Assembly (NCBI GenBank): GCA_022703055.1
Contig: JAKLEP010000003.1
Coordinates: 86,238-150,237 of the forward strand
Origin: Candidatus Omnitrophota bacterium
GTDB taxonomy: Bacteria; Omnitrophota; Gorgyraeia; VGKH01
Reading direction: 5' to 3'
Length of the DNA: 64,000 bases
The stretch's first letter is position 1; each line of letters begins with the position of its first letter. This document shows, piece after piece, positions 40,014 through 55,214 of this stretch. The notes under the pieces are model-generated. The model was not told where the DNA came from. It did no database searches and saw only the letters and a list, made by a program, of their open reading frames with translations. The position numbers were made by a program, and so were the translations under genes.

Positions 40014-40520
40014 CTAGGCCTTAGTTATAGTTATCTTATCACCGGTAATCTTGGCATTAGGTACAATTATTTTTTTATTATCGGCAGCTTGTATAACTGT
40101 GCTAAACACCTGAATTTCTTCAACGATTCCCGTTGCTCCTCCTGCCTCGATATGATCTCCCACCTGAAACGGTTGGAATATTACAATCATAACACCGGCG
40201 GCAAAATTGGCCAGTGATCCTTGTAGCGCCAAGCCAACGGCTAAGCCTGCGGCACCGATAATGGCGATAAACGAGTTAGTTTCTACGCCAAGTTTATTTA
40301 GCGCTGCGATAATTACAAAAACCATCACAGCATAATAGGCCATATTCTTGGTAAATACTGCCAGGGTTTTATTAACCTTTGATTTAACTAGTGCGGCCTC
40401 AATAATCTTGGAAATAAGCCTTGCAATCCATTTTCCAATAATAAAAATTAAAATTGCTGCCAAAATCTTAAGACCATACTGAATAGCGTAATCCTGGATT
40501 TTGAGTAGAGTTGCTTCCAT
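40014..40520 (-). CDS. Short MscS-family mechanosensitive channel protein (no C-terminal alpha/beta domain)
   Basis: LQGSLANFAAGVMIVIFQPFQVGDHIEAGGATGIVEEIQVFST matches the pore helix plus beta domain. At 168 aa, the ORF ends 62 nt before tilS. Confidence 0.7.
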   Translation of the reverse strand: MEATLLKIQDYAIQYGLKILAAILIFIIGKWIARLISKIIEAALVKSKVNKTLAVFTKNMAYYAVMVFVIIAALNKLGVETNSFIAIIGAAGLAVGLALQGSLANFAAGVMIVIFQPFQVGDHIEAGGATGIVEEIQVFSTVIQAADNKKIIVPNAKITGDKITITKA

Positions 40521-47184: not shown

Positions 47185-47837
47185 CGGTTTATTAAGTTTG
47201 CGAAATACCCTGCGCCAAACCCATTATCGATATTGACTACTGCAACTCCCGGAGAACAACTGTTCATCATCGTAAGCAAAGCAGATAAGCCTTTAAAACT
47301 TGCTCCGTAGCCGCAACTGGTAGGAACTGCTATAACCGGGCATGCCACCAAGCCACTAACCAAACTAGCCAATGCCCCCTCCATGCCGGCGATAACGATA
47401 ATCACGGACGCCATCCTTAAAGAATTGTCATTATCTAAAAGCCTATGGACTCCTGCTACGCCAACATCATAAAGTCTTTTACATTTATTACCGGTGAACT
47501 CTAGAGTAGCGATAGCTTCTTCAGCCACCGGAATATCGGATGTGCCGCCGGTAATAACTAAAACAGTCCCTTTTTTGGTTATCTTCTTTGATTTTTCAAC
47601 GAAGGCGACTTGACCTAGTTTATTATATTTTAGCTTAGGGATGGCGCGTCTTAGATCGCTATAAATGCCGCTAGTAACCTTTGTAAGCAGGACTTGCTTG
47701 TCTTTTTTTAAAAGTTCTTTAGCGATAGATTTTATTTGTTGCCTAGTCTTACCGGGACAGTAAATGACCTCGGGATACCCCCGCCTCATACATCTGTCGG
47801 TATCGACTTTGGCAAAGCCAATGTCGCAGTATCTCAT
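47181..47837 (-). CDS. larB: LarB-type (PurE-like) nickel-pincer cofactor biosynthesis carboxylase/hydrolase
   Basis: RRGYPEVIYCPGKT, ITGGTSDIPVAEEA and AGMEGALASLVSGLVACPVIAVPTS; 218 aa. Confidence 0.8.
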   Translation of the reverse strand: MRYCDIGFAKVDTDRCMRRGYPEVIYCPGKTRQQIKSIAKELLKKDKQVLLTKVTSGIYSDLRRAIPKLKYNKLGQVAFVEKSKKITKKGTVLVITGGTSDIPVAEEAIATLEFTGNKCKRLYDVGVAGVHRLLDNDNSLRMASVIIVIAGMEGALASLVSGLVACPVIAVPTSCGYGASFKGLSALLTMMNSCSPGVAVVNIDNGFGAGYFANLINR

Positions 47838-48130
47838 TTTTGCCTAAATATAAAAAGTAGGATTGTCAGTATGACAATAAGAGTTACGATATAGAAATCG
47901 TTAAAATAAAAAAAGTCTTGGAGTTGTTCCTTGAAACTTGGTTTCGGTTCTGCCCCTTCGGGCCTGAAACGATCCCTCATTACCTGAATCTGATCCAAGC
48001 GGAACCTCAAGAATTCGCCACCGATTTTATAGGCAGGAATTTTGCCCTCATTGGATAAATCGATAACTTGCTTCTCAGTCAAACCCAATATCTCTGCAGT
48101 TTCTCTGATATTAATAAATTTTTCTGCCAT
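47834..48130 (-). CDS. Excisionase/MerR-type HTH domain protein with a C-terminal TM anchor
   Basis: INIRETAEILGLTEKQVIDLSNEGKIPAYKIGGEFLRFR is HTH_17-like. A hydrophobic tail (FYIVTLIVILTILLFIF) follows. Confidence 0.6.
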   Translation of the reverse strand: MAEKFINIRETAEILGLTEKQVIDLSNEGKIPAYKIGGEFLRFRLDQIQVMRDRFRPEGAEPKPSFKEQLQDFFYFNDFYIVTLIVILTILLFIFRQK

Positions 48131-48132
48131 AA

Positions 48133-48636
48133 TTAACGAATCTTACCGCTTGCAACCCACTCTTCGATTTTGTTTCTTTCAAATCTCCAGCTATTTCCCT
48201 CTTTTACCGCCGGGATTTTTCCGGAGTTAGCCCAATCAAGAAGAGAATTCTTATCGATTTCCAGGAATCTCGACACTTCATCAGCATCCAAAAGATCCTG
48301 AATCATATTGCATTTGCCCTGAAACACAGCTCCTTCGACGATATTCAACTTTGGTGTTTTTATGTCTCCATGGAAAACCGCCGTCGGCAAAAACACCAGC
48401 CTTGTCATAGCGGTGACATCGCCCTTAACTTTTCCCGCAATGATGATATTCTCTCCCACGATGTGCGCGGTAACACTTGCCGCCTCTCCGATTGTCAGGT
48501 TTCCTTTTGTTTCTAGTGTGCCGTCAAAATGGCCATTGATTCGCAAGTTAACCGGATCCTTAAAAGACAAAGTACCTTGCATGCTCGCATCAACATCAAG
48601 AATCTTGTCGTCAGTCTTTTTATCTTTAAAAGCCAT
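48133..48636 (-). CDS. Bactofilin (DUF583) domain fused to a C-terminal excisionase-type HTH
   Basis: Beta-helical repeats (INGHFDGTLETKGNLTIGEAASVTAHIVGENIIIAGKVKGDVTA...HGDIKTPKLNIVEGAVFQGKC) are followed by LLDADEVSRFLEIDKNSLLDWANSGKIPAVKEGNSWRF. Confidence 0.7.
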   Translation of the reverse strand: MAFKDKKTDDKILDVDASMQGTLSFKDPVNLRINGHFDGTLETKGNLTIGEAASVTAHIVGENIIIAGKVKGDVTAMTRLVFLPTAVFHGDIKTPKLNIVEGAVFQGKCNMIQDLLDADEVSRFLEIDKNSLLDWANSGKIPAVKEGNSWRFERNKIEEWVASGKIR

Positions 48637-48651
48637 TTCCCCCTCCTTTCA

Positions 48652-49083
48652 TTAATCTTTGCCTAAATGAGTTTCGAATTTTCTAAAGATAAGTAAAACA
48701 ATCAATATTATTACCGTGGAAACGAAAGCCGCATAGAAAAATCCGCAACCGCAAGCCATTCCCACTGCCGCAGTGACCCAAAGGCAAGCTGCAGTAGTCA
48801 GGCCTCTTACTGATCCGCCGTAGCGCATGATAGTACCGGCGCACAAGAAACCGATACCGGTAATGACGCCTGCAGCGATTCGCGACGGATCAACATTAGC
48901 TACATCTTTATATATATCAAAAACATATAGCGATGTCAACATAATCAATGCGGAACCTATACTTACCAAGGTATGTGTTCTGAAACCCGCGCCCCTATGC
49001 CTTAATTCTCTCTCTAAACCGATAAGCCCGCCGAATATAACTGACATCATCAATCTTATTACTAATTCTCTATGCGTTAACAA
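48652..49083 (-). CDS. mgtC: MgtC/SapB family membrane protein (TM domain only)
   Basis: GGLIGLERELRHRGAGFRTHTLVSIGSAL; 143 aa. Confidence 0.8.
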   Translation of the reverse strand: MLTHRELVIRLMMSVIFGGLIGLERELRHRGAGFRTHTLVSIGSALIMLTSLYVFDIYKDVANVDPSRIAAGVITGIGFLCAGTIMRYGGSVRGLTTAACLWVTAAVGMACGCGFFYAAFVSTVIILIVLLIFRKFETHLGKD

Positions 49084-53509: not shown

Positions 53510-54930
53510 TATAATTTTGGTTTTTGTTTATGCCATTCGGTACCCTGTTCATAAGTGTAAGCGACTCTAAATAACGTCTCTTCAGCGAATGGCTTGGCTA
53601 AAATCTGTAAACCTATGGGTAAATTATTCTTCGTAAAGCCGCAGGGAATGGAAATCCCCGGGATTCCAGCTAAATTTGTTGAAATGGTAAATATATCTGA
53701 TAAATACATCGATAAAGGATCTTCGGTTTTCTCTCCGATTTTAAATGCGTCGGTCGGCGATGTCGGAGTGATTATACAATCAACCGATTTAAAAGCTTCG
53801 TCAAAATCGCGCTTGATTAATGTGCGTACTTTTAAGGCCCTTAAATAATAAGCTTCGTAATATCCGGCCGAAAGCGCATAAGTTCCAAGCATGATTCTGC
53901 GCTTTGCCTCTTTACCGAATCCCGCCTCTCGCGTGGCAAAATACATATCGATCAAATCGGAAACTTCCTTTTTCGCGGCTTTGGAACGCAAGCCATACTG
54001 CACGCCGTCGAATCTAGCTAAATTGGAACTGGCTTCAGAAGTCGCTACGATATAATATGTCGGAACCGCGTATTCAGTATGAGGCAATGAAATCTCTTTA
54101 TAATCCGCGCCTGATTTCTTGAGAAGATTTATCGCTTGATCAACCGCGTCTTTTACTTCTTTATCAATTCCTTCGATAAAATATTCTTTGGGAATTCCGA
54201 TTTTTAAACCTTTGACATCCTTGACTAATGACTTGGTGTAATCCGGCACCAGAACATCAACTGAAGTTGAATCATTGGGATCATATCCGGCAATGACATT
54301 TAAGAGCAGTGCGCTATCCTCGACGTCTTTAGTCAATGGCCCGATTTGATCGAGGCTTGAGCCAAAAGCGATTAATCCGTAACGCGAAACTCTGCCATAA
54401 GTTGGTTTTAATCCTACCACACCGCAAAAAGATGCCGGCTGTCTGATTGAGCCGCCGGTGTCCGAACCCAAAGCCATTGTGGCTTCGCCTGCGGAAACCG
54501 CGGCAGCTGAACCACCGCTTGAGCCGCCAGGGACTCTGGTGGTATCCCAGGGATTATGAGTCGGCCCGTAAAATGAATTCTCCGTCGATGAACCGAAGGC
54601 AAACTCATCCATGTTGGTAGAGCAAAATAAACTCGCCCCGGCATTTCTTAATTTCGATATAACAGTCGCGTCATACGGAGGCTTGAATCCATCTAAAATA
54701 TGCGAAGCGCAAGTAGTAAGATTATCCTTAATGCAGATATTGTCCTTGGTGGCAATAGGAATGCCGCTGAGGACGCCTTTGCCGACTTCTGCCTCATCAG
54801 GACAAAGACGCAAAACCGCCTTGACCTTTTTGTCGACCGAGGCAATTCGCTCCTCCAGAGATTTGCGAACTTCTCTCGGATTAACTTTATCCTTGATAAT
54901 CTGGTGGGCAGTTAATTCGTGTAAATTCAT
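53509..54930 (-). CDS. gatA: Asp/Glu-tRNA amidotransferase subunit A
   Basis: Amidase signature [11 protein letters not shown]...[12 protein letters not shown]; 473 aa. Confidence 0.95.
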
Positions 54931-55214
54931 TATTCAATAACTTTTGGTACTTTAAATTGATTCTTATCCTTGACCACTGCTATTTTCATTACATCGCTAA
55001 CCGGCAGGGACTTCTTTAATACATCTTCCCGATAAACGTTTTTAATCGGCAGAACATGGCTGGTCGGCTCCACCTTTGATACATCAAGCTCGTTTAATTT
55101 TCCGATGTACTCCAGGATCGCGCTAAGCTCTTTAGTAAATTGCTCAATTTCGCTCTCGCTAAAGCCGATTCTTGCCAGTTTTGCCACATATTCAACATCT
55201 TTTCTTGTAATCAT
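54930..55214 (-). CDS. gatC: Asp/Glu-tRNA amidotransferase subunit C
   Basis: 94 aa; [16 protein letters not shown]...; ATGA-type junction with gatA. Confidence 0.9.

Follow-up and report, generated by a model that had tools for sequence, protein, structure and literature searches.

A conserved bactofilin–winged-helix fusion and its tail-anchored paralog form a two-gene module in Omnitrophota that may hold DNA at the membrane

We analyzed a window of 64,000 nt from the Candidatus Omnitrophota contig JAKLEP010000003.1 (all coordinates are relative to this window), in which two adjacent open reading frames (ORFs) on the minus strand encode a bactofilin fused to a winged helix (48133..48636, hereafter the fusion) and a small protein in which a second winged helix precedes a membrane anchor (47834..48130, hereafter the partner). 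The pair appears to be a conserved two-gene cytoskeletal module of Omnitrophota, whose most likely function, which we put forward tentatively and by analogy with chromosome anchors of other bacteria, would be to hold DNA at the cytoplasmic membrane. With somewhat more reserve, we suggest that the module may attach the chromosome directly to the inner membrane in a nucleotide-independent manner, the acidic winged helix being tuned for weak, avidity-driven, sequence-independent binding. This architecture, a bactofilin–winged-helix protein with a tail-anchored paralog, is conserved across the phylum, restricted to Omnitrophota among all named matches, and undescribed in the literature that we searched. 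Neither bactofilin with Omnitrophota nor bactofilin with excisionase was found together in that literature, and databases name the fusion protein only generically.

The domain content of both proteins was established by profile searches and structure prediction. A sequence-only reading of the window had proposed a bactofilin fused to a helix-turn-helix (HTH) at this locus, and this was borne out: Pfam Bactofilin (PF04519) matches residues 12-109 of the fusion (E 7e-25; 87.6 bits, cut-off 27.9), Pfam HTH_17 (PF12728) matches residues 115-164 (E 8e-13; 48.8 bits, cut-off 27), and the NCBIfam 'excise' domain TIGR01764 is also above its cut-off. The AlphaFold2 (AF2) model of the fusion (mean pLDDT 83, from a 55-sequence alignment) places a beta-helix at residues 12-111 with pLDDT >90 and, by DSSP, gives the fused domain a strand (115-117), alpha1 (118-125), alpha2 (129-138), a beta-hairpin wing (144-153) and alpha3 (154-162). 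The core is matched at the profile level by BacA (2N3D, E 1e-14) and by a Thermus bactofilin (6RIA, E 3.5e-14), and its best Foldseek matches are 6RIB, 2N3D and 6RIA, with TM-scores on the target of 0.75-0.84. The fusion is a genuine bactofilin with a genuine HTH_17 fold.

We then asked how far the fusion resembles canonical bactofilins such as BacA and TtBac (PF04519). It shares with them the beta-helix core, a C-terminal interface Phe and a short N-terminal hydrophobic-basic peptide. Phe105 aligns with F130 of BacA and F105 of TtBac, and the position is hydrophobic in 55/55 family members (F40/L12/I2/V1); an Arg at either of these two residues blocks polymerization (PMC12448750 for BacA F130R, the title of PDB entry 6RIA for TtBac F105R). 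At the N-terminus, family members follow the pattern M-[AG]-[FL]-[KR]-x-[KR]-[KR]-K, or M-[KR]-F-F-x-x-K-R-K-K in a divergent subfamily. This closely resembles the experimentally defined membrane-targeting sequences (MTS) of BacA (MFSKQAKS) and of the short form of CcmA (MFSRKTE), and stable membrane binding of a bactofilin MTS requires polymerization (PMC12448750). Judged by these sequence features, the fusion has what a membrane-associated, polymerizing bactofilin needs, and it would be expected both to polymerize and to bind the membrane. It differs from canonical bactofilins in that a folded winged helix stands in place of the disordered C-terminal tail, a dedicated tail-anchored partner is encoded directly downstream, and no peptidoglycan-enzyme client is evident. 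Core and winged helix are joined by 4 residues in the main clade and by 7-21 elsewhere; so short a linker as that of the main clade sets a folded domain at the polymerizing end and might interfere with polymerization.

The partner, too, is built as the sequence-only reading had described it, with an HTH and one transmembrane (TM) helix. HTH_17 matches residues 7-49 above its cut-off (E 1.2e-7, 32.3 bits against 27), and in the AF2 model (pLDDT 82) a winged helix (5-54) is connected by a linker of low conservation to a short helix (66-76), after which comes a TM helix (78-97). All 83 unique partners have a C-terminal apolar window (>=16/18 residues). Since a single residue (K98) follows the TM helix, almost nothing of the protein can lie beyond the membrane, and the model describes a tail-anchored protein with the winged helix as its sole soluble part. 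Just before the membrane lies the motif D-F-[FLY]-Y-F-N-D-F-Y, which has invariant or nearly invariant columns in a 39-sequence alignment and which the model assigns to the short helix (66-76). Its N-D-F-Y-[ILVF] core is shared by 76/83 partners, and the motif might serve to bind the bactofilin or act at the membrane interface. An alignment of the two HTHs over 49 residues shows 31% identity (pairwise E 4e-8), which makes their paralogy plausible.

We next surveyed the distribution of the pair. The fusion protein of the window is 100% identical to a protein from an NCBI 'Candidatus Omnitrophica' metagenome-assembled genome (MAG), and both domains are present in all of the 120 relatives listed, which are 61-100% identical and 150-174 aa long (165-174 aa in nearly every case). 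When 1.84 billion cluster representatives were searched exhaustively, only ~20 full-length fusion clusters emerged at the 50% identity level (28-56% identical), beyond which the matches were plain bactofilins. Using one peptide pattern, relatives of the fusion were found in at least 378 species-representative genomes. Gene neighborhoods were counted in the best 80 of these, almost all of them MAGs or single-amplified genomes of Omnitrophota, and four divergent contexts (L090, L092, L094 and L095) were added. Loci L009-L011, L015, L020 and L054, whose proteins are 59-73% identical, are among MAGs titled 'uncultured Planctomycetales/Planctomycetia', or in one case 'Margulisiibacteriota'; these taxon labels are probably wrong because the gene order is the same as in Omnitrophota MAGs. 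Candidates for the same HTH subtype on other N-termini proved to be the fusion itself, in fragments or with frameshifts, apart from one unrelated basic protein with a triple HTH_17.

The partner gene directly follows the fusion on the same strand in 80/80 loci. The adjacency is kept, with few-base gaps or overlaps, in 4/4 divergent contexts (35-47% identity), and in a reverse look-up two of two partner variants (131-132 aa, 34-37% identical) were each preceded by a bactofilin-HTH gene. That the two genes belong together as neighbors, a point on which the sequence-only reading had made its proposal depend, is supported by all three counts. The flanking genes are more variable. While mgtC lies directly upstream in 78/80 loci, it is absent in L030, L056, L090 and L092; larB is absent in at least 15/80 loci (an approximate count, as some contigs end after the pair) and in L090, L092 and L094, and fmdE is often missing downstream among the 80 loci. 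In L090 (35% identity), SPOR and TPR/PDZ genes lie upstream of the pair and hint at an envelope or division link in that lineage. In L092 the pair stands between tsaD and SNase, the latter followed by tilS. Downstream of the pair lies a SIS/CTP-transferase gene in L094, and larB followed by a GDSL lipase in L095; in these two contexts the upstream gene is cut and without annotation. Upstream of the pair, the L090 contig also carries a giant ORF of >1303 aa that is cut by the contig end (L090:1-4946). The fusion and its partner are an obligate module across unrelated flanks, and the surrounding genes are not part of it.

The module is also well conserved in sequence. Across 57 loci among L005-L084, mean Kimura distances are 0.33 for the fusion core and 0.41 for the fused HTH, against 0.57 for TsaD, encoded beside the fusion or one gene upstream; the fusion evolves more slowly than TsaD. 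In the same loci, the HTH of the partner has a mean distance of 0.57 and its tail of 1.06.

In the window, the fusion stop and the partner ATG are separated by 2 nt, the partner gene is joined to larB by an ATGA overlap, and mgtC ends 15 nt before the fusion ATG. The sequence-only reading had taken this as an operon with mgtC and larB. The tight packing and the ATGA overlap stand, but the functional weight placed on them does not, as the flanks change in relatives: mgtC and larB were ruled out as functional partners, both being missing at various loci where the pair stays. All ORFs of at least 283 aa lie on the minus strand across the whole window, and from gatC (54930..55214) to RACo the genes are separated by 0-15 nt or joined by ATGA overlaps, an arrangement that is extremely co-directional and streamlined. 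Matches to promoters (31 against 25.4±5.1) and terminators (10 against 12.2±3.5) in the window are at shuffle level, and the 15 nt before the pair leave no room for an operator. The supposed operon is a mere stretch of a very long, co-directional, packed array; given such an array on one strand and no excess of promoters or terminators, co-transcription with mgtC or larB is uninformative on function.

We further investigated whether the winged helices resemble DNA-binding domains. Both superpose best on DNA-bound BldC (6AMA/6AMK, ~50 residues), with a Foldseek rmsd of 1.5 Å over 49 residues for the fused domain on 6AMA and of 1.0-1.6 Å for the partner. BldC is followed among the Foldseek matches by two excisionases, RdfS and Pukovnik Xis, by RacA ('chromosome-anchoring protein') and by regulators of the MerR family. 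Among proteins of solved structure, the fusion is closest in sequence to BldC, and the partner profile to Pukovnik Xis (E 1.4e-4). Like BldC, Pukovnik Gp37, Tn916 Xis and RdfS, both domains have the MerR-like order alpha1-alpha2-beta-hairpin-alpha3 and no dimerization helix. As modeled, both domains share their fold with DNA binders of architectural and regulatory type, and it is this fold that suggests direct DNA binding.

In BldC, K26 and R30 contact bases, T27, T29, K33 and W31 contact phosphates, and H46, R47 and R48 contact the minor groove through the wing; R30A and H46E abolish DNA binding, and RacA uses the equivalent Arg (PMC5859096). We mapped these positions onto both proteins through a HMMER alignment and counted residues over 83 unique gene pairs (Table 1). 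The equivalent of the wing Arg is present in both proteins, those of T27 and W31 in the fusion only. Of K26, R30 and K33, the fusion conserves none and the partner the K26 equivalent alone, and the Arg that reads DNA in RacA and BldC is Asp or Glu in the pair. Basic wing residues are kept: K145, R/K151 (80/83) and R154 in the fusion, and invariant K35, R42 (83/83) and R/K44 in the partner.

Table 1. Residues of the fusion and the partner at positions that contact DNA in BldC (83 unique gene pairs)
BldC residue	Fusion	Partner
K26	N/S/D	K/R in 79/83
T27	S in 76/83 (S131)	E/D
R30	D/E in 82/83 (D134 in the window)	D/E in 75/83
W31	W in 80/83 (W135)	L/F
K33	N/S	E/Q/D
H46	D/E/N/S/G	
R47	W	Y/F
R48	K/R in 80/83	R in 83/83

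If the pair holds DNA at the membrane, the fusion polymer would lie on the membrane with its winged helices displayed as a regular array, and the non-polar nature of bactofilin filaments would probably place them in pairs at tail-to-tail contacts. The array and the tail-anchored paralog, which is apparently made by translational coupling with the fusion, would engage the nucleoid with high avidity although each site binds weakly, most of the contact being made by the conserved basic wings. BldC and Xis form head-to-tail arrays on DNA, and a polymer scaffold could pre-organize such arrays. As the module comprises only membrane, polymer and winged-helix parts, parsimony suggests that any output would need an external ligand of the winged helix.

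The three types of part are those found together in RocS (S. pneumoniae), RacA-DivIVA (B. subtilis) and Par (pSK1), which combine a MerR-type winged helix, an oligomerizer and a membrane or pole anchor. RocS consists of a MerR-type winged HTH, a coiled coil and an amphipathic helix that binds the membrane only after oligomerization; such a weak anchor requiring prior oligomerization is also what was shown for the bactofilin MTS of BacA. The partner alone, a winged helix with a membrane anchor, resembles a minimal RocS, and is similar to RicO (S. aureus), which is described as having an N-terminal DNA-binding domain and a C-terminal amphipathic helix. In the logic of RocS, RacA/DivIVA and RicO, the bactofilin would take the place of the coiled coil. 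The pair differs from RocS, RacA, RicO and Par in its reversed domain order, in having a bactofilin polymer instead of a coiled coil, and in splitting the function over two proteins; Pfam finds neither a coiled coil nor DUF536 in the pair. RacA itself shows no significant similarity in sequence (E 0.5 against the partner profile), and the likeness to RocS, RacA and RicO, of which RocS and RicO were compared by description, is an architectural analogy and not homology.

Several observations weigh against DNA as the ligand. The fused winged helix (115-164) is never net-positive over the 83 pairs (mean -2.95, range -6 to 0); it is at -3 in the window, or -1 when the terminal K-I-R is counted, and at -7 by hand count in P0252, a protein of a subfamily that lacks the partner. 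The partner HTH averages +1.2 (range -2 to +10), but it is near neutral in the clade of the window (0 in the window protein), and its 'recognition helix' differs between lineages. DNA-binding relatives of solved structure are at ~+4 to +6 over the same region (computed for BldC, counted by hand for Pukovnik and Tn916 Xis). BldC itself is a free, basic 68-residue monomer with a pI of 10.8, whereas the domains described here are acidic or neutral and tethered to a polymer or a TM helix. The proteins of the window are basic overall (median pI 9.1). The combination of basic recognition-helix residues (K26, R30 and K33 in BldC) with an electropositive face was not found. The same fold also binds protein, CbpM in complex with the J domain of CbpA (3UCS) being among the Foldseek matches. 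Finally, in B. subtilis the HTH protein BacR (YhbD, DUF4004) is bound by the bactofilins BacE and BacF at or near its HTH, where they compete with DNA (PMC13649987). Since the fused domain is net-negative and has Asp or Glu at the Arg30 position, its DNA binding, if it occurs, would be atypical. The DNA tethering proposed by the sequence-only reading therefore fares unevenly: the architecture matches the logic of RocS, RacA and RicO, while the chemistry of the fused domain, acidic and with K26, R30 and K33 replaced, speaks against it.

The main rival to a DNA-membrane tether, possible but in our view doubtful, is that the winged helices are docking domains for proteins and bind no DNA, the module being a scaffold with a bitopic client or an extra membrane anchor. 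The acidic, polymer-borne domain would then bind the winged helix of the partner, possibly head-to-tail as in BldC, or another basic protein. An acidic domain without major-groove readers fits this reading, as does the charge asymmetry between the two domains (~-3 fused, ~+1.2 partner). Across the 83 pairs, however, the charge of one domain does not follow that of the other (rho -0.12, p 0.26), and the partner-less subfamily keeps an even more acidic winged helix, whose ligand there would have to be something else than the partner. The equivalents of the BldC head-to-tail interface are hydrophobic or Gly in both proteins (F21, V23, W31; L11, I40, G44), and the tight gene coupling, with a 2-nt gap here and overlaps elsewhere, suggests stoichiometric co-production. 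A mirror-tree comparison of the fused and partner HTHs (57 loci, partial correlation controlling for TsaD and YibQ distances) gave r 0.45 against 0.35-0.55 for an MgtC control, and hence no specific signal.

Docking also has precedents beyond the fold of CbpM and the binding of BacR near its HTH. In BacA-PbpC and BacA-LmdC, to which the pair can be likened, the short cytoplasmic part of a membrane protein binds the polymer, and the bitopic client PbpC can substitute for the MTS of BacA (PMC12448750); the invariant juxtamembrane motif of the partner could be such a polymer-binding peptide. Against this, the fusion has its own MTS-like peptide, so that a further anchor would be unneeded, and mutual binding of the two winged helices alone would leave the module without an evident output.

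A regulatory switch like the one that links BacR to BacE and BacF is improbable. Here, a transcription factor would be gated by polymerization or by sequestration at the membrane, serving bactofilin autoregulation or an envelope-stress response. BacR is encoded beside bactofilin genes and held at the membrane by the bactofilins, and it moves to the nucleoid upon bactofilin depletion or vancomycin treatment (PMC13649987). The juxtaposition of an HTH gene and a bactofilin gene is shared with our pair, the transcription factor BldC also has the HTH_17 fold, and the partner-less subfamily adjoins a histidine kinase and a sigma54 response regulator. We take BacR to be MerR-like from our own reading of its motif. 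In contrast to soluble, relocating BacR, one HTH of the pair is fused to the polymer, which it cannot leave, and the other is permanently TM-anchored and lacks a sensor domain; the two genes stand in the opposite order, and DUF4004 is absent from both proteins (Pfam, E <= 0.01). The recognition helices lack base-reading basic residues, and the pair has only its 15 nt of upstream sequence in a window without promoter excess. The polymer-gated transcription factor that the sequence-only reading had offered as an option is possible, with nothing specific in its favor.

Chance synteny, mobile-element and defense readings are essentially excluded: HTH_17 is an excisionase family, NCBIfam MADS1 gives a sub-threshold match and the whole order from gatCAB to RACo is common to most close relatives, but the pair persists where all flanks differ (L090, L092, L094 and L095), the fusion is more conserved than TsaD, and no integrase, att-like or defense genes were found near the pair in the window, which makes inherited synteny without functional coupling, excisionase remnants and components of a MADS-type defense system all highly improbable. 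The matches to the MADS1 anti-phage HTH (NF047737) reach 43.2 and 29.5 bits, far below the cut-off of 80, and the neighbors that speak against a mobile-element excisionase are housekeeping genes (gatCAB, ctpA, tsaD, larB and acsD).

Returning to the DNA-membrane tether that we favor, its interest lies in how bactofilins, a widespread class of scaffolds, are otherwise linked to DNA. In Myxococcus xanthus, a BacNOP scaffold organizes chromosome-segregation components through PadC and ParAB (PMC5703909). The bactofilin thus reaches DNA indirectly, via PadC and ParA/ParB, whereas the fusion carries a domain of DNA-binding type within the bactofilin itself. Together with BacR (PMC13649987), this agrees with the statement in the sequence-only reading that bactofilins normally reach DNA through adaptors. 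With these known links being indirect, the module would, if it binds DNA, be a direct link between cytoskeleton, DNA and membrane. The fusion would then be the first bacterial cytoskeletal polymer known with its own DNA-binding domain, a bactofilin counterpart of RacA/DivIVA and RocS, and the module would give a handle on chromosome organization in Omnitrophota, a large uncultivated phylum. If it binds no DNA, it would be a natural example of a winged helix repurposed as a polymer docking domain, and would add a type to the known clients of bactofilins. The fusion would in addition, by Rosetta-stone logic, be a second case tying an HTH to a bactofilin, in support of a general functional link such as that recently reported for BacR.

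The features of the module and its immediate surroundings are listed in Table 2. Further paralogs of either domain were not found in the window, the 168-aa ORF at 40014..40520 being an unrelated membrane protein.

Table 2. Coordinates of the module and adjoining features in the window
Feature	Coordinates	Strand	Size and basis
Bactofilin–winged-helix fusion gene	48133..48636	-	167 aa; ORF, Pfam Bactofilin and HTH_17
N-terminal MTS-like peptide MAFKDKKT, residues 1-8	48613..48636	-	Family motif compared with the MTS of BacA and CcmA
Bactofilin beta-helix core, residues 12-111	48304..48603	-	Pfam, profile and Foldseek matches
Winged helix, BldC/Xis/MerR-type, residues 115-164	48145..48294	-	HTH_17, AF2, Foldseek
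Tail-anchored winged-helix partner gene	47834..48130	-	98 aa; ORF and HTH_17
Partner N-terminal winged helix, residues 5-54	47969..48118	-	AF2, Foldseek, profile match
Juxtamembrane aromatic motif D72-F-F-Y-F-N-D-F-Y80	47891..47917	-	39-sequence alignment
Predicted C-terminal TM helix, residues 78-97	47840..47899	-	AF2 helix and apolar window
Shine-Dalgarno AGGAGG	48642..48647	-	5 nt upstream of the fusion ATG; read from the sequence
mgtC	48652..49083	-	143 aa, membrane domain only; Pfam MgtC E 3e-42; outside the core module

No partner gene adjoins the fusion in its most distant subfamily (Omnitrophica WOR_2, 28% identity). In L085, L086 and L089, the fusion gene of this subfamily is followed by the histidine kinase and sigma54 response regulator mentioned above. 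In L087 (866-2263) and L088, a gene three positions upstream of the fusion encodes a 465-aa ParA/MinD/MipZ-like ATPase with a C-terminal CBM48/AMPK1 glycogen-binding module. A ParA/MinD-like ATPase near the fusion was seen in this subfamily only, and it recalls the link between bactofilins and ParA in Myxococcus.

The packed array of the window brings together unrelated functions: gatCAB, a ctpA-like S41 protease, a yibQ-like deacetylase, tsaD, mgtC, the pair, larB, an fmdE-like gene, acsD/cdhD and RACo. The syntenic mgtC encodes 223-224 aa in other Omnitrophota lineages (L096:2794-3468; L097:2539-3210), against 143 aa in the window. In these lineages, larB is followed, directly or one gene later, by larC (Ni_insertion), while in the window it is followed by the FmdE-like gene and the Wood-Ljungdahl genes acsD and RACo.

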